Source: Candidatus Kuenenia stuttgartensis (GTDB taxonomy: Bacteria; Planctomycetota; Brocadiia; Brocadiales; Brocadiaceae). From it: DNA of 32,000 nucleotides. Positions 8,778 to 30,200 of this stretch are shown here, in pieces. Numbering within the stretch: position 1 is the stretch's first letter; every line of letters begins with the position of its first letter. The position numbers were made by a program, and so were the translations under genes. The notes beneath the pieces are model-generated. The model was not told where the DNA came from. It saw only the letters and a list, made by a program, of their open reading frames with translations, and searched no databases. The stretch is taken from positions 4,050,001 to 4,082,000 of the forward strand of contig NZ_LT934425.1 of NCBI RefSeq assembly GCF_900232105.1, in the 5' to 3' direction.

Positions 8778-10116
8778 TTACCCATCAACAATCTCCCAAT
8801 GCCCGCCTTTATCGGGACCGATGCGTTTGAGAATCCCCTTTTTTCTAAGTCTGGTTATATGATATTTTATTCCATCATCAGTTATTCCAATAAGTTCAGC
8901 CAGTTCTTTTTGAGTGATATCTGATTTCTTAGCGATAGCTTCTATAATTTTCTGGGTAGTTTTCTGGGTAATATCTTTCCCCGCTTTAAGAGAATACCTT
9001 GAATCACGGTAAAAAATGACCCGAAAGAACGCATCCATTTCAAACACAGGTTCTTTCAGTCCGGCCTCGCGCATAAGCTCTCTCATACGCTCGATACCAG
9101 AACCCATACGCTCAACTTTACCCATGCGATGGAACAGATCGGCAATAATCGGATTTCTTCTTACAGATGGCTTGCCGAAATCCCGCTTTGTAATTCCATC
9201 AGGCAATCCGCCGGGGTTTTCTATTTCCACGCGATCATCAAATATTCTTACATAAATACTTGTTCCGTTAATCGTATAATTCCTGTGGACTATAGCATTA
9301 ACAACTGCCTCCCTTAAGGCGTCTAAAGGAATCTCATAAATGTCAAAGCGGTCAAAACCCCGAATTTCACTGCGAACGTTTAAATGTTTCTTTAAAAATG
9401 CAACGGCTCCATTAAACTGGGTTAAGAGGTCGTCTTTCACATCATTTCTGTCATAAATATTCGTTTTATCCGTTCCCTTAAAAGATGCAAAGATGCTTTC
9501 TGCGAGGGATGAACTTTTCAACTTTGGAAGAAAACATTAAAGCCCCTGTATTGTTGATTTTGTCTTTCCTGTAAATGCTCAGACTTGTGAGAAAGGAGGC
9601 AAGATTTGCCTTGCTGACCTTGTAAGACATATTTGCTTCACGCAAAAATGATTTAACTTTCATAAGCGAAATATCCTTAAGGCTTAAATCTCTGCAAGGG
9701 ATATCCTCAAAGGAGATATTATCGGTTTCACGAAAAAGAGACCGCACCTCCCGATGAGTCATCTTCTGTGTCACTGCGTCAAGCCGTCTGTAATAACCGG
9801 AAGATGAACCATAAGGCTTTTCATCTCCCTCGGCAACCTCAACAACAACGATATTTCCCTCTTGATGGATTTTCTTAATGTGAATTGACGGATCACAGTT
9901 CCTGGCAATAGCATTTATTTCTGCTTTCATTTTATTGGTCAGTTTCTCACCAACAACCTTTCCTCTATCATCAATACCGAGAAGCAATAAACCGCCTTTT
10001 GAATTGGCAAAGGCGACAATATCACGGTCAATCTTTGGCGTGTATCTCTCCTTAAACTCAACCGTTAAGCCTTCGCCTTCTTTAATCAGAATGTTTATCT
10101 TGTCAGCATCTGTCAT
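8778..10116 (-). pseudogene. AlbA_2 (Schlafen-like) + HATPase_c_4 + wHTH protein, often annotated 'RecG-like ATP-dependent DNA helicase / transcriptional regulator', split by a frameshift
   Basis: The N-terminal ORF (start ATG 10116 with a GGGGAGA RBS) reads EGEGLTVEFKE...FANSKGGLLLLGIDD and ends ...ALMFSSKVEKFIP. The C-terminal ORF continues in another frame with LAESIFASFKGTDK...VNAIVHRNY...VEIENPGGLP...MGSGIERM plus a wHTH (ITQKELAELIGITDDGIKYHITRLRKKGIL). The junction near 9500-9510 needs a 1-nt correction. Confidence 0.8.
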
Positions 10117-15527: not shown

Positions 15528-15574
15528 ATTATGAATGTTAAATTTTAAACAAAAAATAAACAGTCAGTAAATTT

Positions 15575-15623
15575 AAAATCTAAAATCTAAAATCCAAAAT
15601 CCAAAATCCAAAATCTAAAATTT
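15575..15623. repeat. Seven tandem heptamers AAAATCY
   Basis: The units are aaaatct aaaatct aaaatcc aaaatcc aaaatcc aaaatct aaaattt, in perfect 7-nt phase. The array ends 5 nt before the cusA-like ATG. Confidence 0.8.
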
Positions 15624-15628
15624 CTACC

Positions 15629-18600
15629 ATGTTAAATAAAATTATACAATACGCCCTAAATAATCGCTTAATGATTATGGCAGCCTCAGCACTGCTTTTA
15701 ATAGCTGGCATTTATACGGCATCCATAATGGAAGTTGATGTATTTCCTGACCTTACTGCGCCAACGGTAGTAGTGTTAACCGAAGCGCACGGAATGGCTC
15801 CGGAAGAAGTCGAAAAATTAGTAACCTTTCAAATTGAAACGTCAGTCAATGGCGCCACCAATGTACGCAGGGTAAGGTCATCATCTGCCGCAGGAATATC
15901 AATTGTTTGGATAGAGTTTGAGTGGGGAACAGATATTTTTAAGGCACGACAAATCGTTAGTGAAAAACTGACAATCATTGCAGAAAAGCTACCACTGGGA
16001 GTCGGAAACCCTACAATGGCCCCTCAATCATCCATCATGGGTGAAATTATGCTTATCGGTTTATCATCGGAAAATACAACACCAATGGATTTAAGAACCA
16101 TTGCCGACTGGAATATACGGCCCAGGTTATTGGCGACAGGAGGAGTGTCGCAGGTTATTGTAATTGGCGGAGAATACAAGCAATACCAAATACTTGCCTC
16201 TCCTCAAAAAATGAAACATTACAACATTTCTTTAAACGAATTGCTGAGGGCAAGTAAAGAAAGCAATCTTAATGCCTCAGGCGGTTTTATGAACGAATAT
16301 GGCAACGAATACATCATAAGAGGTGTTGGAAGAACAAACAGCGTGGAAGAAATAGGCAATGCAGTAATCAAGGTTGTTGCTAATGTGCCGGTAAAAATAG
16401 AGGATGTTGCAGAGGTTAAAATAGGCGGAGCAATCCCTAAAATCGGGGACGGTTCACTCAAAGCAAGTCCGGCAATTATTATGACCGTAGCAAAACAGCC
16501 GGGAACCAACACCCTGGAACTCACAAAAAAAATTGATAATGCTATTACAGAGATTGCCAAAACCCTGCCTTCCGACATCAAAATCAACACCAATATATTT
16601 CGTCAGGCGGATTTTATTCAGGCTTCCATAAGTAATATTCAAAAAGCGCTAATTGAAGGTTCTGTCTTTGTAGTTATCATTATGTTCTTGTTCTTAATGA
16701 ACTTCCGAACCACCATTATATCCCTGATTGCTATTCCCCTTTCACTTATCGTTTCCATTATCACCCTTAAATTTTTGGGATTAACCATCAATACCATGTC
16801 TCTTGGCGGAATGGCAATAGCCATCGGCTCATTGGTAGACGATGCTGTTATTGATGTGGAAAACGTCTTTAAACGTCTAAAGGAAAATGCACAAAAAAAT
16901 AATGAAGCACGAGAAAGTACACTTGTTGTAGTTTATGATGCCTCAAAAGAGATTCGCTCATCAATCCTTAATGCGACCCTTATCATTATTGTTGCTTTTA
17001 TCCCCTTGTTTTTTCTTGGCGGGATGGAGGGAAGAATGTTGCGGCCTCTGGGGATCTCCTTTATCGTTTCTCTGTTTGCATCCCTGATTGTTGCGGTAAC
17101 ACTCACCCCTGTGCTTTGCAGTTTTATGCTTACCAACGACAAAATGCTTTTAAAGCAGGCAAAAGGCAGTTGGCTGGAAAGAGGGCTTCACCGATATTAT
17201 AATTCCGCATTAGGAAAGATAATGAAAATTAAAAAGACATTACTTGGGATATCCATCGTGTTGTTCATTATGGCGATTTTTCTAATGTTTGGTTTGGGAC
17301 GGAGTTTCTTGCCTGAATTTAACGAAGGCACTTTAACGGTAAATGCTGTCAGTATGCCGGGCATATCACTCGAAGAATCAAATAAAATTGGAAACAAGAT
17401 TGAAAATATCCTACTGTCGGTGCCAGAAATTTCAATTACTTCACGCAGAACGGGAAGAGCCGAATTAGATGAACATGCACAAGGTGTAAATGCCGCTGAA
17501 ATTGATGCTCCCTTTGTTTTGGCGGAAAGAAGCAAGGATGAATTTATGAAGGAAGTTCGAAAGAAATTAAGTGCTGTCTCTGAAGCGAACATCACCATCG
17601 GGCAACCCATAGGACACCGTATTGACCATATGCTTTCAGGCACAAGAGCCAACATTGCCATTAAGCTTTTCGGAACAGACTTATCCAAAATGTTTTCTGT
17701 TGCTAATCAGATAGAGCGCACCATTGAAGGCATAGACGGACTTGTGGATATTAGCGTGGAACAGCAGATTGAAATTCCGCAAGTACAAATAAAAGCGAAA
17801 CGGAATATGCTGGCTAAATATGGTATTTCAATAGGTCAATTTGCCGAATTCATTGATGTTGCCCTTGCAGGCGAAAAGGTATCTCAGGTTTTTGAGAGAA
17901 ACAAAAGTTTTGATTTGGTATTACGATTTAATGATGAAAACAGGGGCAAAATAGAAAATATCCGCAACGTCTTAATTGATACCAATATCAATCCAAACCA
18001 ACAATCCAAAATTCAAAATTCAACATCCAAAATCCCTTTACATTATATAGCTGATATTGTTTCAACAACAGGCCCCAACACCATTAACCGGGAAAATGTA
18101 CAACGGAAAATTGTGGTTTCAGCCAATGTGGCCGGACGTGATTTAAAAAGCGTAGTAAACCAAATCAAAGAAAAAATAGATGATACTGTTCAGTTGCCGG
18201 AAAATTACCGCATTCAATATGGCGGACAATTTGAAAGCGAAGCAAAGGCATCAAAAATATTATTCTTCACCTTTTTAATGGCTTTATTCATCATATTCCT
18301 TTTGCTTTATCAGGAATTTAAAAATATCAGGCTTGCAGGCATTGTTTTTCTCAATTTGCCTTTGGCGCTGATAGGCGGCGTCTTAAGCATTTGGTTTACA
18401 GGAAAAATCATAAGTATTCCCTCTATCATCGGGTTTATTACACTGTTTGGAATAGCGACACGTAACGGGATATTATTGGTTTCACGCTATCAGACATTGC
18501 AGAGTCAAGGCGTTGCTTTGTATGAAACCGTCATTAAAGGCTCTTTAGACAGGCTAAACCCGATTCTCATGACTGCCTTAACTACCGCTTTGGCATTAAT

Positions 18601-18780: not shown

Positions 18781-18828
18781 AAGTCTTCAGTCTTCAGTCT
18801 GCGATTTTGTACGATTGATGATTGCCGG
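18781..18828. repeat. Short degenerate heptamer fold-back repeat (CAGTCTT units followed by GATTG-type units)
   Basis: The sequence is aagtctt cagtctt cagtctg cgattttgt acgattg atgattg ccgg. It starts 33 nt after the cusA-like stop and is related to the arrays at 25509-25564 and 29430-29513. Confidence 0.5.
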
Positions 18829-23501: not shown

Positions 23502-25478
23502 ATGAAACATTTTTTAAAAAAAGAAAAGGAATTAAGAAAAAAAGCCTTTGCTGATAAGCAAATTGAGGAGACCGTTGATTTTTTGCGACAACAGGGTATT
23601 GAAACTGTTTGGGGTATACAGGCGGCTTACGATACAAGCCTGTTTGGATTAAAAGACAGGTGTGGATTTGGAAGTCATGGACTCTGTTGCCGAAACTGCA
23701 ACCTTGGTCCCTGCCGGCTGGATAGTGAAGAATTACCTCTTCATACAAGGCTTGCAGCCCCAAAGGTAAAGAGGAGTTCCTGCGGCAAAACGGCTGATAA
23801 TATGGTTGCCGGTATGTTTCTTCAAACGGTGCTGCGCGGCACAAGCTCGCACCTGGGGCATGCAATACATGTGGCGAAAGCGTTTGTCGCGGCAGCTAAA
23901 GGGTCTGAAAATTTCCCAATAAAAGATGAGGCAAAACTTTATGCCGTGGCAAAAGAATTGGGCATAAATACTGACGGCATGCAAATGCTTGATATTGCTA
24001 AGGAAGTCGGTCAAAAAGCGATGGAAGACCTTGTTGGGCAGGGAGAGGGACCTATGAATTTTGCTCTTGCCCTTGCACCAAAAAATATTGATAAACTGGC
24101 AAAGGCAGGCATTGTTCCTCAAAAAGGCGCTGCAGAGGCAATAGTTCAGGGAATCCATAGTACCGCCCAGGGGATGATGAGCAGCACAGACCACCTTATC
24201 ATGTCGTGTTTAAAATACGGGGTAATTGATGTATTGGCCCTCTACATTTCAACACAATTACAGGACATTTTGCTGGGAGTACCCACACCCAAAGAAAGCT
24301 CGATAGGTATGGACGCACTCGATAAAGACAAGGTAAATATCCTTGTACATGGCCATGTGCCGGTACTTTCTGAAATGGTAGTTCATTTTGCAAACAAACT
24401 TGAGGACATGGCAAAAGAGGCGGGGGCGAAAGGCATTAATGTGGTAGGAACCTGCTGCACCGGTACGGAAGTATTAATGAGGCTCGGCATACCCATGGCT
24501 GGTAGCACAATTATGCAGGAACTTGTGGTTGGCACAGGACTGGTAGACGCCGTATGTGTGGATGTACAGTGTGTGTATCCATCACTTTCGTCAATTACAA
24601 AGGGGCTCCATACCCGATTAATTACTACCATGCCTGAATTGCGGATGGACAATGATACCTATATTGAATTTACTCCGGAAAACGCCCATGAATCCGCAAG
24701 GCAAATTGTAGAGGAGGCAATCAAAGCGTATAAAGATCGTTTGTCTGACCGCGTATTTCTGCCAAAAGCCAAGGGGCATAAATTAATGGGTGGCTTTTCT
24801 ACCGAGGTAATGATTGACGTCCTGAAAAAATTAAATGCCCAACAGCCGCTAAAACCGCTTGTCGATCTTATAGTGGATGGTTCTATTCAGGGCGTTGCCG
24901 TGCTTGCCGGTTGTTTGTCCTCAAAGATTCAAACAGACATGAGTTTTGTTATCATGGCAAAGGAGCTTTTAAAGAATAACGTTTTGGTCCTTGCTACAGG
25001 CTGCGCGGCAACGGCATGCGCGCGTCACGGATTACTGACAGGAGAGGCGAAAAAATATGCAGGTGATTCTTTGCGGGGTGTTCTGGAAACAATAGGAAAA
25101 ACCTCTGGATTAAATGGAAGCATCCCCCCTATCCTTCACTTTGGTTCATGCGTGGATAATTCACGCTGCGCTGTATTGGCTTCAGCCATTGCAGATTATC
25201 TGAACACATCCATCGATAAGCTCCCTCTTGTTGCAAGCGCCGCCGAACATGTTGTGGAAAAAGCGGCCGCTATTTATATGGGGGTTATGGCGCTTGGAAT
25301 TACCACACACATTGGTGTAACGCCAAAGCTTGGAGGTTCTCCGTATGTAATTGATATGCTCACCAACAAACTGGAAAGTATCACCGGCAGCACATTAATC
25401 ATTGAAATCGACCCTGTTGAATCGGCAAAAAAGATGATACATCATATTCAAAAGAAAAGAAGGGCATTGGGGATATGA
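23502..25478 (+). CDS. cooS: Anaerobic Ni,Fe carbon-monoxide dehydrogenase catalytic subunit (CooS/AcsA family)
   Basis: The D/B-cluster motif is CGFGSHGLCCRNCNLGPCRL. C-cluster-context motifs are LVHGHV, VGTCCTG, VDVQCV, ATGCAA and HFGSCVDNSR. I moved the start to ATG 23502, which has an AAGGTGG RBS (658 aa). Confidence 0.9.
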   Translation: MKHFLKKEKELRKKAFADKQIEETVDFLRQQGIETVWGIQAAYDTSLFGLKDRCGFGSHGLCCRNCNLGPCRLDSEELPLHTRLAAPKVKRSSCGKTADNMVAGMFLQTVLRGTSSHLGHAIHVAKAFVAAAKGSENFPIKDEAKLYAVAKELGINTDGMQMLDIAKEVGQKAMEDLVGQGEGPMNFALALAPKNIDKLAKAGIVPQKGAAEAIVQGIHSTAQGMMSSTDHLIMSCLKYGVIDVLALYISTQLQDILLGVPTPKESSIGMDALDKDKVNILVHGHVPVLSEMVVHFANKLEDMAKEAGAKGINVVGTCCTGTEVLMRLGIPMAGSTIMQELVVGTGLVDAVCVDVQCVYPSLSSITKGLHTRLITTMPELRMDNDTYIEFTPENAHESARQIVEEAIKAYKDRLSDRVFLPKAKGHKLMGGFSTEVMIDVLKKLNAQQPLKPLVDLIVDGSIQGVAVLAGCLSSKIQTDMSFVIMAKELLKNNVLVLATGCAATACARHGLLTGEAKKYAGDSLRGVLETIGKTSGLNGSIPPILHFGSCVDNSRCAVLASAIADYLNTSIDKLPLVASAAEHVVEKAAAIYMGVMALGITTHIGVTPKLGGSPYVIDMLTNKLESITGSTLIIEIDPVESAKKMIHHIQKKRRALGI

Positions 25479-25494
25479 TAATTTTCAACACATC

Positions 25495-25610
25495 AGTACC
25501 TTAGTCAGCAATCTACAGTCGGCAAATTGCAGATTGAGGACTGAGGATTGAGGACTGCAGACTGTTTTCGTGTTTGTTTGGCTATGGCAGCTTAATGGGT
25601 AAGAAAGAGG
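25495..25610 (-). repeat. Heptamer-phased palindromic repeat element, copy A (inverted relative to copy B at 29383-29525)
   Basis: It has 8 phased units (caatcta cagtcgg caaattg cagattg aggactg aggattg aggactg cagactg, 25509-25564) plus a unique flank ctgttttcgtgtttgtttggctatggcagcttaatggg. The whole element is homologous to the reverse complement of copy B. It starts 17 nt after the cooS stop. Confidence 0.75.
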
Positions 25611-25758
25611 TGTATGATTCAGGCACAGGGCAATCGCATCATAACGGAAATCTTTTTGGTACTTTACAAAAATAATCGTCACCCCATCCGGCCATTCATT
25701 TTTTAGTACCAATATAGTTTTAGAAAAAACCAATAGTAGCGATGTTTGCCGCATATTG

Positions 25759-25855
25759 TAGGGGAGAAGCATTTGCTATAAATTGTTATAAATGCGTTCA
25801 TGCCCAAACCGGCAAATGTTTAGCCCCTGCTTTTCCAAAAAACTAAAGTGTTACT
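25759..25855. repeat. Degraded second copy of the GGGCGAAGCATTTGC palindromic element
   Basis: taggggagaagcatttgc ... ggcaaatgtttagcccctgc followed by ttttccaaaaaactaaagtgttac parallels 20200-20297. The left outer arm is missing. Confidence 0.55.
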
Positions 25856-26216
25856 CCGCATGTCATTTTATTATGTGTAACGTCCCAGTTGAGCGGTACC
25901 GGCTACAAACAGAACCGAGAAGCGCCGCGGCCGAGTCACGGCATCCGCCTCGAACGTAATGTTATACATCTATCTTTGTGGAAATCCTCAAAGACTTCAC
26001 TACTCTATTCCAACCAGAAAGCTTTCTAAAGTGGACGGGTCGGTTCCGGTTTCCGTTCATAATAATCATAATTATAAGTAGGTGACTATGGTCACATCTT
26101 AAATAATAAATATTAAGAAAAGAAATTGGAAAATCTTTACAGGCTATCACGAAATACAATACAAATTCACAAATTTCCTTTTAAACATTCATTGTTTTTT
26201 CCCACCCGCTATTCTT

Positions 26217-26426
26217 TTATGCGAAAATTAACCTGCCTTTAGGTTCGGGAACATGACGTCCTAATTCCTTAGCAGTCTCTAGCCAATCTTTGATAACAAT
26301 TTCAGCATTACTGAGCGCCTCCTGATATGTAGCTCCATCGGCTGCACAGCCTGGCAATTCCGGAACTTCTGCAATGAAGGCATGATCCTCTACGCTCCAG
26401 TAGATAATTATTTCATATCTGCTCAT
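26217..26426 (-). CDS. hicB: HicB-like antitoxin (UPF0150 family)
   Basis: A 69-aa protein, YEIIIYWSVEDHAFIAEVPELPGCAADGATYQEALSNAEIVIKDWLETAKELGRHVPEP, the typical short HicB/UPF0150 fold signature. Confidence 0.75.
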   Translation of the reverse strand: MSRYEIIIYWSVEDHAFIAEVPELPGCAADGATYQEALSNAEIVIKDWLETAKELGRHVPEPKGRLIFA

Positions 26427-26571
26427 TTTCTTTGTCTCCCAACTTGTATTTTAATATTATATTGCGTACCTGTTTAACTCCTAAGCTAAGCCCCCAGCTA
26501 TGCTGGGGAGAATGGCAAAAGCTATGCTGAAGTATTTGAAAAAGGAATGAGCTTTTGAGATTATTATTGCT

Positions 26572-28287
26572 CCTAAATCCTGCAAACGATTTTCGCAATG
26601 CGAAAATCAGTATTTTCCACTACCAAGATTGGCAAAAAGCGATAACAGATATCCGTTTTTTAGCAATTGTGGTAGCGCTATTGTACTACTTTAAACAAAA
26701 AGACATGGGAAATTGTCGGAAACGTGCTCTCTGATGCAATGAAAATCAAGATAGGGATGTACTGTCTCCATCTGCGGTATACTTACCACTCTCAAAAGAC
26801 TAAAAAAACGAAATACAACGTCGGTTTTCTACTGAAAAACTACATCCAGTGACATGCGTTCCCACTTTTCCCATTCCTCCTGATGGAGAAATTTCTCCGG
26901 CAATTTTAATGTCATCTGCCGGCTTCTCTCCACCAGTTTCCCTGCCACACGGATTAACCACAGTCTCATCGTCTTTACTTCCCACTGTTGTATCACTCCA
27001 CCACTGAGCAATCCCATCCACTTCAAAAGATTATACGCTAACACCGCACACTGAAATAGCGCAGCATTGGCCAAAAATTCACCCGTACGTATGTGCCCCG
27101 CATTCATCTGTCCTTTACTCTCTTCTATCAAAGTCTCGCAGGTAGCCCTCTTTCCATAACAACGATGCGCTTCCATCGGACTTAACCGCTCCGTTGTAAC
27201 GTAACAAAAATACTCATACACGGACACTTCTACTAATTTCTTTTCTCTTTTGACCAATTGCCGCACTGCCACAAAACGTCTCGCACGATCCCACCCTGCA
27301 CATCGATACCAAAATTCAGCCTGTTCCCATCCTGGCTCCCCTTTCACCTCATTCCATTTCTGCCCTTCAAGCAATCCTTCCAGATTCTTCAGCTTTACCT
27401 TAATCAGATATCCCGCCAATATTGACTCAAGGTATTCAAGTAATTCTCCGGTAAAAAAACCGCTGTCTCCCCGAAATACCACCCTTACCCCCTTATTCAT
27501 GTACGCCATACATTCCTTCATGAACTCTACTACTCCGTTACTCGTGTAGGCGCTTCCACAGCGGAACCAACTATGTAATACCTCCTTTGTTTCTGCAATA
27601 AATGCCATTAAGGGATGATACGCCTTCTGCCCCTTCTTGTGCGGATTATATCCTACCTCTGCACCCTCCTGTTTCCCATATACACCATCTACGGTAGAAT
27701 CAACATCTATCCATACTTCGCAAAGAGCACTCCTGAGTTTATGGCCTGATCTCACCGCACGCTTCCATATCTTTCCCCTAAACCGGTGGATCACCCCCGT
27801 CAGTTCCACTATATCTCCCTGACTCGCCAGCTTCATAATACGTCCTATCGTAGTATCTACAGGTACCTCTTTCCACCCGGACATCTTCTTCAATACCTCA
27901 TCTGTACACACCTTCATCACCTCTACCATCGATGTCGCCCCTGCTATCAACCCTATCACTACCATTTGTACCGCATCGACAAACTGATACCGGGCATTTG
28001 CTCCACGATCCTTATGGACCGCTTCATGGACTCTCTCCCGGAACATCAGCTTACCCATAAAATTCAATACCGGTAAAAGCCCTGCATGTACCGTTAAGCC
28101 TTTCCCGCTCATCTCTGCCTTGATTTTCGGTTGTCTTTTGCTGTATTTTTTTGCTATATTCTTCATCGAAATGGTGAATCTCCTTTCAGGTGTTTTTTGT
28201 TATCAATATACCGCCGAATACCTTGGAAATCCTACCATTTCAATCCTATTCCTGCAACAAGGCTTTGCCTTGTTTGCAGGATTTAGG
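26572..28287 (-). mobile_element. IS1380-family insertion sequence, 1716 bp, intact
   Basis: The perfect 16-bp IRs are cctaaatcctgcaaac (26572-26587) and gtttgcaggatttagg (28272-28287). The direct repeat TTGCT lies at 26567-26571 and 28288-28292. The size, the CC-initiated IR and the 4-5 bp duplication fit IS1380. Confidence 0.9.
26829..28166 (-). CDS. IS1380-family DDE transposase
   Basis: A 445-aa protein. IDVDSTVDGVYGKQEGAEVGYNPHKKGQKAYHPLMAF, VFRGDSGF and YGKRATCETLIEESK are characteristic of IS1380 transposases. Confidence 0.9.
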   Translation of the reverse strand: MKNIAKKYSKRQPKIKAEMSGKGLTVHAGLLPVLNFMGKLMFRERVHEAVHKDRGANARYQFVDAVQMVVIGLIAGATSMVEVMKVCTDEVLKKMSGWKEVPVDTTIGRIMKLASQGDIVELTGVIHRFRGKIWKRAVRSGHKLRSALCEVWIDVDSTVDGVYGKQEGAEVGYNPHKKGQKAYHPLMAFIAETKEVLHSWFRCGSAYTSNGVVEFMKECMAYMNKGVRVVFRGDSGFFTGELLEYLESILAGYLIKVKLKNLEGLLEGQKWNEVKGEPGWEQAEFWYRCAGWDRARRFVAVRQLVKREKKLVEVSVYEYFCYVTTERLSPMEAHRCYGKRATCETLIEESKGQMNAGHIRTGEFLANAALFQCAVLAYNLLKWMGLLSGGVIQQWEVKTMRLWLIRVAGKLVERSRQMTLKLPEKFLHQEEWEKWERMSLDVVFQ

Positions 28288-28361
28288 TTGCTTATTATTT
28301 CCACCTGTCAATTACAAAAAATTAAACATTTCAAAGAAAAGGCGGGGTCAAATCTTAATGA

Positions 28362-28389
28362 TTGACAAATAGCTTGTATCTGATATGAT
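28362..28389 (+). promoter_or_regulatory. Promoter of the Y1-transposase gene (TTGACA-N16-TATGAT), probably giving a leaderless mRNA
   Basis: TTGACA lies at 28362-28367 and TATGAT at 28384-28389. Only 6 nt (acccgc) separate the -10 from ATG 28396, and there is no SD. Confidence 0.5.
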
Positions 28390-28395
28390 ACCCGC

Positions 28396-29370
28396 ATGGC
28401 AAGACCACTACGCATACAATATAAAAATGCATTATATCTTGTGACCTGCCAGGGTAACAAGCGTAAGGCAATATTCAGGGATGACCAGGATAAGAAACTG
28501 TTTCTTGAGTTGTTGAATGACGGGCTGAAAACTTATACTAACCTTCTGTATGGTTACGTTCTCATGGAGAATCATTTCCATCTGCTTTTAGAAACACCCC
28601 TCGCCAATCTCAGTGAATTTATGAAATGGATTAACATTACCTACACCGCATATTACAATAAAAGACACAAAAGGACAGGCCATTTGTATCAGGGGAGATA
28701 CAAGAGCATTCTCCTTGAAAAGAAAGCGTATCTGGATATTGTGTCCCGATATATTCATTTAAACCCTCTCAATACGAGGCTGGGGAAAAAACTGCCGCTA
28801 TCGGAAAAGAGAAATTATTTGAAGAACTATGCGTGGAGCAGCCTTTTAGGTACTATCGATCATACCAAAAGAAATGACATTATAGCGTATGCCGGGGTAC
28901 TTGAGCCATATGGAGGCGACAACAAAAAAGGACGGCAATTGTATTGGGAGGCTGTTTGCAGTGATTTGCCGGCAGGTATTAAAATAAAAAATATGGTTGT
29001 TGGTGGAAACATACTGGGGAGCACCGGGTTTATCAACAGGGTGAGAGATAAATATTTACCGCTGAGATCACGTGAGATTTTACCTGCACGGCGGTTAAAA
29101 AACTATATCAGAAAAGAGACCATCATTAAAGCACTCTGCAAGGAGACAAAGAAAAGTTTTGATGAAATAAAGAATGAACGGGGTGTAATACGGCAAATAG
29201 CCATGGACTTATTGTACCGTTTTGGCGGGCTAAGCGGAACGGAGATCGGAGAAATGATGGGGATTGGCTATAGCACTGTAAGCATGGAGAGAAAACGATT
29301 ACGGGCAAAACTTAAAGGCAACAGGCATCTTTCCGGGATTATCAAAAGGATTGAAGCTATCCTCCAATGA
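28396..29370 (+). CDS. RAYT-like Y1 (HUH) tyrosine transposase, IS200-like fold, with C-terminal DnaA-domain-IV-like HTH
   Basis: The HUH motif is MENHFHLLLET and the catalytic-Tyr context is DIVSRYIHLNP; GHLYQGRYKS is typical of PF01797/RAYT proteins. The C-terminus IRQIAMDLLYRFGGLSGTEIGEMMGIGYSTVSMERKRLRAKL resembles the DnaA C-terminal HTH (PF08299). Confidence 0.8.
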   Translation: MARPLRIQYKNALYLVTCQGNKRKAIFRDDQDKKLFLELLNDGLKTYTNLLYGYVLMENHFHLLLETPLANLSEFMKWINITYTAYYNKRHKRTGHLYQGRYKSILLEKKAYLDIVSRYIHLNPLNTRLGKKLPLSEKRNYLKNYAWSSLLGTIDHTKRNDIIAYAGVLEPYGGDNKKGRQLYWEAVCSDLPAGIKIKNMVVGGNILGSTGFINRVRDKYLPLRSREILPARRLKNYIRKETIIKALCKETKKSFDEIKNERGVIRQIAMDLLYRFGGLSGTEIGEMMGIGYSTVSMERKRLRAKLKGNRHLSGIIKRIEAILQ

Positions 29371-29382
29371 GAAGGCATTGAC

Positions 29383-29525
29383 CCCTCTCCCCTTAAGCTA
29401 GCATAGCCAGAATCAAACAAACACGAAACAGTCCTCAGTCTTCAATCTTCAGTCTTCAGTCGGCAATCCTCAATCGGCAATTTGCCGACTGCCGACTGTA
29501 GATTGCCGACTGCAAAAAGATACTA
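29383..29525 (+). repeat. Heptamer-phased palindromic repeat element, copy B
   Basis: A unique flank cccctctccccttaagctagcatagccagaatcaaacaaacacgaaa precedes 12 perfectly phased heptamers (29430-29513): cagtcct cagtctt caatctt cagtctt cagtcgg caatcct caatcgg caatttg ccgactg ccgactg tagattg ccgactg. It starts 12 nt after the Y1-transposase stop. Confidence 0.8.
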
Positions 29526-29576
29526 ATAAAGCAGCTCCCCGATTACTTCTCCCGCACGACATTTCCAGACCGCATT

Positions 29577-30200
29577 ATGACTATTGAAAAATCGCGATTC
29601 CACCAATTTATTATAAAACAAAATAATTTTGACCGGCTAGGGTTTGAAAATTGGGTTTTTTACCCCGGCATGTTGTTTAATGATCATCATAAATGGTGGT
29701 CAGATGCAGGTATTCGCCGCCAACCTCACGAAGGAGTTGATTTCTGTTTTTACCGGGATACAACGGGAGGTATACGTACTATTGGCTATAAAACAAAGAT
29801 CCCGGCGCTCTATGATGGAAGGGTAGCGCATATCCACGATGATTTTCTGGGCAAATCTATCTATGTGCAGCACAATACCTACGACGAGCGCAGACATGCG
29901 CTTTTCACTATATATGGACATACCATTCCAGTGAATGGCCTTAATACGGGAGATATGGTGAGCGAGGGCAACATACTTGCAACCACCGCAAATGTGCGGG
30001 AACATGCAAGGATTCTTCCCCATGTGCATATCACAGTGGCATGGATACCTGTATCTTTTCCCCATGAAAGACTTACATGGAAAATGATAAATGCCCCACA
30101 GATAACCACCCTCTGTAATCCTCTTGAGTTTATCGATTGCAAATTTACCGTTGAAAGGGAATGGGTCGATCCGGAGGATTATTTTCCGGCAAAAGACTGA
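29577..30200 (+). CDS. M23 (LytM-like) metallopeptidase-domain protein without a signal peptide
   Basis: It has the HxxxD motif (PHEGVDF) and the HxH motif (LPHVHITV) with GDMVSEGNILA between them, in the order typical of M23 peptidases. No N-terminal hydrophobic segment and no clear SD. Confidence 0.7.
   Translation: MTIEKSRFHQFIIKQNNFDRLGFENWVFYPGMLFNDHHKWWSDAGIRRQPHEGVDFCFYRDTTGGIRTIGYKTKIPALYDGRVAHIHDDFLGKSIYVQHNTYDERRHALFTIYGHTIPVNGLNTGDMVSEGNILATTANVREHARILPHVHITVAWIPVSFPHERLTWKMINAPQITTLCNPLEFIDCKFTVEREWVDPEDYFPAKD

Follow-up and report, generated by a model that had tools for sequence, protein, structure and literature searches.

Does a transposase gene that lies between two inverted copies of a palindromic repeat act on that repeat, or do gene and repeat belong to separate systems? 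This question is raised by a 32,000-nucleotide stretch of Candidatus Kuenenia stuttgartiensis (contig NZ_LT934425.1, positions 4,050,001 to 4,082,000; G+C content, 41%), referred to here as the window, in which a gene for a Y1/HUH transposase with an additional helix-turn-helix (HTH) domain is bracketed by copies A and B of a palindrome built from heptamers. The original prediction, made from the sequence of the window, regarded enzyme and heptamer copies as a single unit resembling a REPtron, i.e., a RAYT transposase gene between inverted repetitive extragenic palindromes (REPs), and as a candidate new system of repeat mobilization. Our analysis points to a different answer, to which we assign a probability of about 0.68: two unrelated repeat systems lie side by side, namely, a resident TIRtron, which is a tyrosine transposase gene (TIRYT) with terminal inverted repeats (TIRs) of its own, and a set of Kuenenia-specific intergenic repeats that includes A and B, neither of which would be a substrate of the Y1 enzyme. 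A new repeat-mobilizing system is probably not what this locus holds. The features on which the argument turns have the following coordinates in the window.

28396 to 29370, forward strand: TIRYT gene, 324 amino acids, with an N-terminal Y1/HUH domain and a predicted C-terminal DnaA-domain-IV-like HTH (about residues 240 to 324).
28344 to 28370, forward strand: left TIR, GGGGTCAAATCTTAATGATTGACAAAT, with a single match in the window.
29359 to 29385, reverse strand: right TIR, eroded (reverse complement, GGGGTCAATGCCTTCTCATTGGAGGAT), overlapping the last codons and the stop codon of the gene.
28362 to 28389, forward strand: predicted sigma-70-type promoter of the transposase gene (TTGACA, 16-nt spacer, TG-TATGAT).
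25509 to 25564, forward strand: heptamer-phased palindrome of copy A, 8 in-phase units, centre CAAATTG.
29429 to 29512, reverse strand: heptamer-phased palindrome of copy B, 12 in-phase units, a strong hairpin.

The exact 324-amino-acid protein is encoded in Candidatus K. stuttgartiensis genomes such as CP049055.1 (4.33 Mb). It matches the Pfam model Y1_Tnp with 49.3 bits (E value, 6.5e-13; curated cutoff, 23), and residues N59, H60, H62, Y119, I120, H121, and N123, which span the HUH (H60-F-H62) and Y-I-H-x-N-P (Y119-I-H-x-N123) motifs, are invariant in 26 homologues with 50 to 74% identity. The C-terminal part is less clear-cut at the level of single profiles: Bac_DnaA_C scores 19.7 bits, below its cutoff of 31.5, HTH_23 scores 16.9 bits, again below the curated cutoff, and Sigma70_r4_2 is weak too, with the weak HTH matches covering residues 241 to 306. 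While a single-sequence search against the PDB gave no matches, the best PDB sequence match of a profile built from the 26 homologues was DnaA domain IV (3pvp; E value, 0.005; residues 243 to 322). An AlphaFold2 model (pLDDT, 84) has its best fold match in the Escherichia coli RAYT-REP complex 4er8 (TM score of 0.75 on the target), with the IS608 and ISDra2 TnpA structures (2a6o, 2vjv, and 2xm3) ranking after it, and its C-terminal domain superposes on the DNA-binding domain of DnaA in 3pvp with a TM score of 0.80 and a root mean square deviation of 1.7 Å. Together, conserved motifs and modelled folds indicate that the protein is a RAYT-type Y1/HUH enzyme fused to a DnaA-domain-IV-like HTH, in agreement with what had been proposed from the sequence.

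This architecture, which the original prediction held to be uncharacterized, has in fact been described. Quentin et al. (2018, PMC6006769) describe a subclass 2.1 of TnpA-Y1 proteins with a C-terminal extension like Bac_DnaA_C, HTH_23, or HTH_28, equate it with the TIRYTs, and report no REP-like sequences near its genes. The TIRtron, in turn, is defined by Di Nocera, De Gregorio, and Rocco (2013, PMC3733652) as a tyrosine transposase gene flanked by TIRs, many of which share the motif GGGGWSAS. The combination of Y1 domain and HTH is thus that of TIRYT/TIRtron, or TnpA-Y1 subclass 2.1, subgroup 2.1.2; judging from its architecture and its TIR motif, the Kuenenia gene appears to belong to subclass 2.1. 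A homology search found at least 5,905 homologues, nearly all of 324 to 330 amino acids, in hosts that include Kuenenia, Brocadia, Jettenia, Scalindua, other Planctomycetes, and Nitrospirae, and in other genera the gene is found at unrelated loci.

If the heptamer elements were the flanking repeats of the enzyme, as had been assumed, they should accompany the gene. The repeats that are conserved in the gene family are instead 27-nt TIRs (GGGGTCAAATCTT..TTGACAAAT) that begin with GGGGTCAA and lie close against the gene. In the window, the start of the left TIR fits the GGGGWSAS motif at 7/8 positions (PMC3733652), and the right TIR matches the left one at 17/27 positions by hand count. Outside Kuenenia, the left TIR is present with 0 to 3 mismatches in seven loci (designated L011, L014, L015, L149, L150, L151, and L152). 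The Jettenia locus L014 has a perfect 27-nt inverted repeat, GGGGTCAAATCTTTATTGTTGACAAAT, around the gene, whose one arm stops 26 nt short of the ATG while its other arm overlaps the stop codon, and the Brocadia locus L015 has three TIR copies, with a right TIR that is 94% complementary. Even in a Nitrospirae metagenome-assembled genome (L165), whose protein is only 55% identical, the gene has GGGGGTCAATTCTTTATTATTGACAAAT on its left and GGGGTCAATTCTTTATCTTTGATATAC (reverse complement) on its right. TIR DNA is thus conserved across phyla at a level like that of the protein, as would be expected of the recognition site of the enzyme itself. No heptamer array of the CARTCNN type found at A and B lies next to the gene at the Nitrospirae locus, and all inspected non-Kuenenia loci are without flanking heptamer elements. 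Wide occurrence of the gene without such elements had been named in the original prediction as an observation that would speak against it, and this is what the homologues show.

The left TIR seems to serve the gene in a second way. The best promoter match of the region, at 11/12 positions, has its -35 box inside the left TIR and its -10 box ending 6 nt before the ATG, so that the predicted mRNA would be leaderless or nearly so. This layout of promoter and left TIR is kept in all homologous loci; we found no statement of it in the available portions of PMC3733652 and PMC6006769. As a hairpin, the TIR is marginal (-2.8 kcal/mol; z score, -1.4).

Several further observations concern TIRs in other genomes. 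In the Brocadia locus (L015, 5942 to 7405), the third TIR copy brackets an adjacent gene with an AbiJ N-terminal domain; in Brocadia sinica (L011, 4325 to 4351), a solo left end lies 1.6 kb upstream; and L151 carries a (GGCAAA)n tandem array and a duplicated GGGGTCAA ahead of its TIR (about 9900 to 9975). In an uncultured planctomycete (L149, 4964 to 5400, and L150, 1437 to 2574), other sequence stands in place of the outer GGGGTCAA of the TIRYT right TIR, and the gene of an IS110-family transposase follows directly; the end of this TIR was apparently the insertion site of an IS110-type element.

If the TIRs are the repeats of the transposase, what are A and B? Both heptamer blocks follow the pattern (CARTCNN)n-CAAATTG-(NNGAYTG)m, the units of copy A being CAATCTA CAGTCGG CAAATTG CAGATTG AGGACTG AGGATTG AGGACTG CAGACTG. 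The heptamer block of copy A begins 31 nt past the stop codon of a Prismane/CO-dehydrogenase (CODH)-family gene that ends at 25478. Over its full extent (25495 to 25610), copy A aligns with the reverse complement of copy B (29383 to 29525) in a distal end, the heptamer block, and an inner flank of ∼40 nt, and this alignment agrees with the in-phase unit counts in confirming that A is an inverted copy of B with 8 rather than 12 heptamers. The distance between gene and repeat was likewise reported correctly, since the stop codon occupies 29368 to 29370 and the predicted start of copy B lies 12 nt further on. Within the window, an 18-mer from the inner flank occurs only at A and B (two or more matches in 0/100 shuffles). 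As single strands, copy B folds strongly (-22.8/-24.4 kcal/mol; z score, about -6.4), and copy A folds weakly (-9.7 kcal/mol; z score, -2.0).

Two inverted hairpin-type copies on either side of a gene whose product is closest, among solved structures, to the E. coli RAYT in complex with a REP hairpin (4er8) are what one would see if the Y1+HTH enzyme recognized, nicked, and disseminated or maintained the heptamer hairpins, as RAYTs do with REPs. Di Nocera et al. (PMC3733652) even speculate that TIRYTs might form repeat families like those of RAYTs. We nevertheless consider this explanation improbable. Homologues with 55 to 74% identity from Brocadia, Jettenia, another planctomycete, and Nitrospirae are without heptamer arrays and have a nearly identical 27-nt TIR, and the protein reaches 60.6 bits with the NCBIfam RAYT equivalog model REP_Tyr_transpos, for which the cutoff is 80. 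Unrelated genes separate copy A from the transposase gene, at a distance of 2.8 kb, or about 1.07 kb if an IS1380 insertion sequence described below is disregarded. The GTAG tetranucleotide that had been likened to the conserved tag of REPs is indeed present at the locus, but GTAG/CTAC is no conserved tag: it arises only as part of the heptamer variant TAGATTG/CAATCTA, its position is not fixed, and it is absent from other members of the repeat type (L143 and L139). Nor did Quentin et al. (PMC6006769) find REPs near subclass 2.1 genes.

The distribution of the repeats beyond this locus bears on the same point. We compared 211 kb of Kuenenia DNA, including nine further K. stuttgartiensis regions obtained through the multicopy IS1380 transposase, with 129 kb from Brocadia, Jettenia, and other planctomycetes (mostly regions around TIRYT homologues) and with 555 kb of control DNA from unrelated genomes. 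Palindromes with the same type of centre were found at 9 loci in the Kuenenia DNA, roughly one per 25 to 35 kb, and except for A and B none of them lies next to a Y1+HTH gene. Examples are (CAGTCGG)5 CAAATTG CAGATTG (GGGACTG)4 in L143 and CGGCAGTCGGCAAATTGCAAATTGCCGACTGCCGACTGCCGACTG in L139; palindromes of this kind fold at -20 to -22 kcal/mol (z scores, -5.6 to -7). Arrays with a period of 7, 14, or 21 nt number 40 per 211 kb in Kuenenia versus 35 per 555 kb in the unrelated genomes. No CARTCNN-type palindrome was found in the 555 kb of control DNA and no CARTCNN array in the 129 kb from Brocadia, Jettenia, and other planctomycetes, where 3.7 would be expected at Kuenenia density (Poisson P = 0.024). 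A dispersed and genus-specific repeat is also what a REP family would look like, and this counts on the side of the REPtron-like explanation. A literature search for heptamer or REP repeats in Kuenenia gave no description; all that it yielded was a mention of “260 short tandem repeats” by the authors of the MBR1 genome paper. The heptamer-phased palindromes thus apparently form a genus-specific, undescribed family.

The inner flank shared by A and B, which had been called unique, is so only within the window. It belongs to a dispersed tail module of ∼40 nt with the consensus TTATTTCGTGCTTGTTTGGTTCTGGCTATGCCAGCTTAGGG. A sequence model detects this module 12 times, exclusively in Kuenenia loci, and it also occurs behind a second type of heptamer array with TTTCGTA/ACGAAAT units, where these are followed by TTTTTTAT and the tail. 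As a separate dispersed module, it counts against the REPtron-like explanation.

25564 to 25600, forward strand: tail module of copy A, TTTTCGTGTTTGTTTGGCTATGGCAGCTTAATGG (sequence-model match of 31.1 bits; E value, 6e-8).
29389 to 29431, reverse strand: tail module of copy B, adjoining the right TIR at its outer end (sequence-model match of 48 bits; E value, 3e-13).
L138, 7139 to 7176 and 13518 to 13558; L140, 14519 to 14542; L144, 12050 to 12088: TTTCGTA-type arrays with tail.

By alignment, the tail of A is no closer to that of B than to other copies. A third palindrome with the same flank lies in a different intergenic region of Kuenenia sp. Bin_40 (L034), where there is no Y1 gene, and a metagenome scan with a specific tail pattern recovered only the copy B locus (L136). 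Four tail copies end 7 to 28 nt before a start codon (L034, L138, L140, and L148), suggesting a promoter or 5′-leader module, and others face the 3′ end of a gene. Reading the tail as a sigma-54 promoter (TGGC...GC) was rejected by hand, the spacing being 2 nt too short, and a sigma-70 reading was unconvincing, the promoter scan giving no good match there. A Y1_Tnp fragment near one tail copy (L138, 7451 to 7602) was considered as a possible association and discarded, being the N terminus of a classical IS200 TnpA and not of a TIRYT. Palindromes are also combined with another short module, AAACCTCAACTTATT, and this joining to several modules points to a mosaic organization of Kuenenia intergenic repeats like that of bacterial interspersed mosaic elements (BIMEs). 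A short conserved module starting with TTATAAAAACCTCAACTTATT adjoins heptamer palindromes that have no TTTCGTG tail in L139 (about 17945 to 17985), L141 (about 790 to 830), and L144 (about 9290 to 9325).

We then asked how the locus varies between strains by comparing 10 Kuenenia assemblies and a second species, Kuenenia sp. Bin_40. The gene neighborhood is constant, with a Prismane/CO-dehydrogenase-family gene and hicB on one side and an M23-peptidase gene and the ATP synthase operon on the other. Copy A is identical in all 10 assemblies. The stretch from the end of the gene to a downstream anchor, which contains copy B, measures 123, 166, 173, or 187 nt; the three longer alleles differ by whole AAGACTG/AAGATTG units, and the shortest, found in one assembly, is without the palindrome centre. 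Bin_40 keeps the palindrome at this site, expanded there by (TGTAGAT)x4. Copy B is therefore a variable-number tandem repeat (VNTR) with 7-nt steps, a behavior of slippage and not of transposition. Unit-number polymorphism, which had been suggested for comparison between strains, is seen here; inversion or absence of the unit, suggested alongside it, is not. The A-B interval is neither inverted nor absent in any of the 10 assemblies, and the B side is unchanged in one metagenome contig and in Bin_40.

This last result bears on the idea of an inversion switch, by site-specific or homologous recombination, in which A and B would serve as arms and the 3.8-kb segment between them would flip. Their inverted orientation and about 80% identity over roughly 60 to 110 nt would suit such a switch. 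Gene order and orientation are nevertheless the same in 10/10 assemblies, with the B side likewise the same in the metagenome contig and the second species, the interval contains no recombinase gene, and the arms are short and diverged, which makes an inversion switch very improbable.

The TIRtron itself occupies one locus in all 10 assemblies and in Bin_40, whose protein is 94% identical. Relative to the Bin_40 orthologue (38 nucleotide differences), the ratio of nonsynonymous to synonymous substitution rates (dN/dS) is 0.29, showing that the open reading frame is under purifying selection. The picture that emerges is of a TIRtron that moved in the past but is a resident today and has probably lost its mobility, its right end being eroded and its gene and promoter-bearing left end being maintained.

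The interval between A and B has a history of its own, as the following features show.

26217 to 26426, reverse strand: solitary hicB-like antitoxin gene (Pfam HicB_lk_antitox, 1.7e-9), found in all assemblies.
26572 to 28287, reverse strand: IS1380-family insertion sequence, transposase at 26829 to 28166 (NCBIfam transpos_IS1380, 346 bits).

The ends of the IS1380 element are terminal inverted repeats that match at 16/16 positions, and a 5-bp target duplication, TTGCT, is found at 26567 to 26571 and 28288 to 28292. The element is missing in 7/10 assemblies (L002 and L005 to L010), with the empty site visible in L002, and is thus a recent, strain-polymorphic insertion; the A-B interval measures about 2.05 kb without it. 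This bears out the original description of hicB and a later IS1380 insertion within an interval of otherwise about 2 kb. The hicB gene is a passenger or neighbor between copy A and the transposase, outside the TIR-bounded unit. In addition, a 96-nt stretch (25758 to 25853) is ∼83% identical to L138 7278 to 7374, just upstream of the classical IS200 TnpA fragment mentioned above, and contains a CATTTGC...GCAAATG hairpin. Its sequence resembles what would be expected of an IS200/IS605-type element's end or of a miniature inverted-repeat transposable element derived from such an element, so that a second Y1 system would have left traces inside the interval. A G+C-rich stretch at 25880 to 25960 (GAGCGGTACCGGCTAC...GCGCCGCGGCCGAGTCACGGCATCCGCC) is conspicuous within the A+T-rich intergenic region and has no Rfam match at E values of ≤1; possibly, it encodes a structured RNA or is what is left of a mobile element. 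An Rfam search over 25000 to 30000 found nothing credible, suggesting that neither the tail module nor this stretch is a known RNA family.

An interval that has collected IS1380, an IS200-type remnant, and hicB looks like a sink for insertions, which speaks against a functional pairing of A and B around the gene. It also fits with a preference of the TIRtron for its target, by which it would have inserted beside a hairpin-forming repeat without mobilizing the heptamer and tail elements, A merely being a member of the family nearby. Such an event would explain why the right TIR abuts the end of the copy B tail, the two lying within about 6 nt of each other. IS200/IS605 and IS110/IS1111 elements are known to target hairpins or REPs, and the IS110-family element that borders the right TIR of the TIRYT gene on its outer side in L149 and L150 suggests that repeat ends attract insertions in these genomes. 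Still, a single insertion event allows no statistics, and the outer flanks of TIRs elsewhere are purine-rich, are otherwise unrelated, and include no hairpin repeat. We regard target preference as rather unlikely.

Coming back to a resident TIRtron beside independent intergenic repeats, the events at this locus could be pictured as follows. The TIRtron would be a unit of about 1.04 kb (28344 to 29385) resembling an insertion sequence, with one gene and 27-nt TIRs that begin with GGGGTCAA. Its HTH would bind the double-stranded TIRs and position the HUH/Tyr site, which may then nick a single strand at the edge of the TIR via a 5′-phosphotyrosine intermediate, by analogy with IS200/IS605 and RAYT enzymes. 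Given that the left TIR contains the -35 box, binding would probably also repress the gene's own promoter, i.e., provide autoregulation. Owing to the decay of its right end, the Kuenenia copy would be unable to excise. The heptamer palindromes, for their part, would grow and shrink in 7-nt steps by slipped-strand mispairing and may act, together with the tails, like REP/BIME or STRR sequences, as intergenic hairpins at gene ends or as modules just upstream of start codons. A and B would be ordinary members of this family within an insertion-rich intergenic stretch that took up hicB, the IS200-type remnant, IS1380, and the TIRtron.

A number of points weigh against this interpretation. Inverted, dispersed hairpin repeats on both flanks of the only intact RAYT-like gene in the sampled Kuenenia DNA are the signature of a REPtron. 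At the sampled density of the palindrome-plus-tail subtype, such flanking is unlikely to be accidental: by a rough estimate, its chance is well below 1% for this subtype alone, although it exceeds 10% when every heptamer array is included. The repeat census is based on samples (211 kb and 129 kb) rather than on whole genomes. In Bin_40 (L147, 100 to 166), the promoter half of the left TIR (GATTGACAAAT) is kept and the outer half (GGGGTCAAATCTTAAT) is missing; the contig extends only 166 nt upstream of the gene, leaving the region of copy A outside it. To our knowledge, there is no biochemical work for any TIRYT, and every mechanistic step above is therefore drawn from IS200/IS605 and RAYT enzymes. 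A further scenario, which we find improbable, is that the subclass 2.1 enzyme has been recruited in Kuenenia to create or maintain the heptamer palindromes, with A and B as the “home” REPs of a REPtron on a TIRtron chassis. If the enzyme were in fact tied to the palindromes, this would be the first REP-type family linked to a TIRYT, with a self-folding tandem 7-nt array as the substrate.

Heptamer arrays of other kinds occur elsewhere in the window. An (AAAATCY)x7.6 array (15569 to 15621) ends 10 nt before the ATG of a large RND/ACR_tran efflux pump gene, and ahead of the array stands CAGTCAG-TAAATTTA, a sequence similar to the palindrome centre; a change in its length could alter pump expression. 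Within the coding sequence of the pump, there is a degenerate AATCCAA-type array of 6.7 copies (17990 to 18035), in which slippage would put the gene out of frame, 7 not being divisible by 3; this array is identical in L006, the only other assembly in which both anchors match. Just 3′ of the gene, a short (AGTCTTC)x2.7 array (18782 to 18800) is framed by AAAATC...GATTTT and is invariant in 8 assemblies.

In terms of significance, the gene falls into the known TIRYT/TIRtron class, and the heptamer palindrome family is the more original by-product of the analysis. The TIR, conserved almost base for base from Planctomycetota to Nitrospirota and overlapping a near-consensus promoter, offers a clean and testable DNA-protein pair. 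Given their variation in 7-nt steps between strains, the heptamer palindromes may be useful as strain markers, and together with the ∼40-nt module, they bear on the origin of STRR- and REP-like repeats.

Among known systems, the TIRtron/TIRYT is the closest counterpart of the gene: it shares the Y1/HUH core with RAYT-like motifs, a length of ∼325 amino acids, the C-terminal Bac_DnaA_C/HTH_23-like domain, the lack of classical REPs, and flanking TIRs starting with GGGG(W)(S)A, of which the upstream one is placed ∼25 nt ahead of the start codon, whereas the downstream one overlaps the 3′ end of the gene. The Kuenenia unit differs in that its right TIR is eroded (17/27), the last base of its 8-mer motif is A and not S, its left TIR doubles as the -35 region of a promoter, and it is fixed at one locus across strains and a second species. 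With REPtrons, it has in common the catalytic fold (4er8 being the best structural match), a single resident gene, and inverted hairpin-forming repeats on both sides, of a type also dispersed in intergenic regions. However, the Kuenenia repeats are heptamer arrays of 56 to 84 nt and not REPs of 20 to 40 nt that bear GTAG/CGTC as a fixed tag, the distance from the gene to one of the two repeats is a matter of kilobases, unlike in the tight REPtron layout, and the protein has an extra HTH and TIRs of its own and scores below the NCBIfam RAYT equivalog cutoff. Moreover, close homologues of the gene occur without the repeats, and in the limited DNA sampled, repeat and transposase do not go together from genome to genome. 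The TnpA proteins of IS200/IS605 elements such as IS608 and ISDra2 share the fold, the HUH motif, and the single catalytic Tyr, but these elements have subterminal hairpins, no TIRs, no HTH, and proteins of ∼130 to 150 amino acids and are usually multicopy, in contrast to the TIRs, 324 amino acids, and extra domain found here.

For the heptamer palindromes, the nearest known counterparts are the short tandemly repeated repetitive sequences (STRRs) of cyanobacteria, 7-bp repeats that are able to form hairpins and have no known function (PMC2670836). Like these, the Kuenenia arrays are intergenic and consist of 7-bp tandem units that can form hairpins, and like the BIMEs of E. coli, they are combined in mosaics with other short modules. 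The unit of STRR1, (CCCCAGT)n, can also be read as (CAGTCCC)n and thus shares a CAGTC core with the Kuenenia arrays. What sets the latter apart from STRRs and BIMEs is that they are phase-preserving palindromes with the fixed centre CAAATTG, reside in a planctomycete, and often carry a tail of ∼40 nt.

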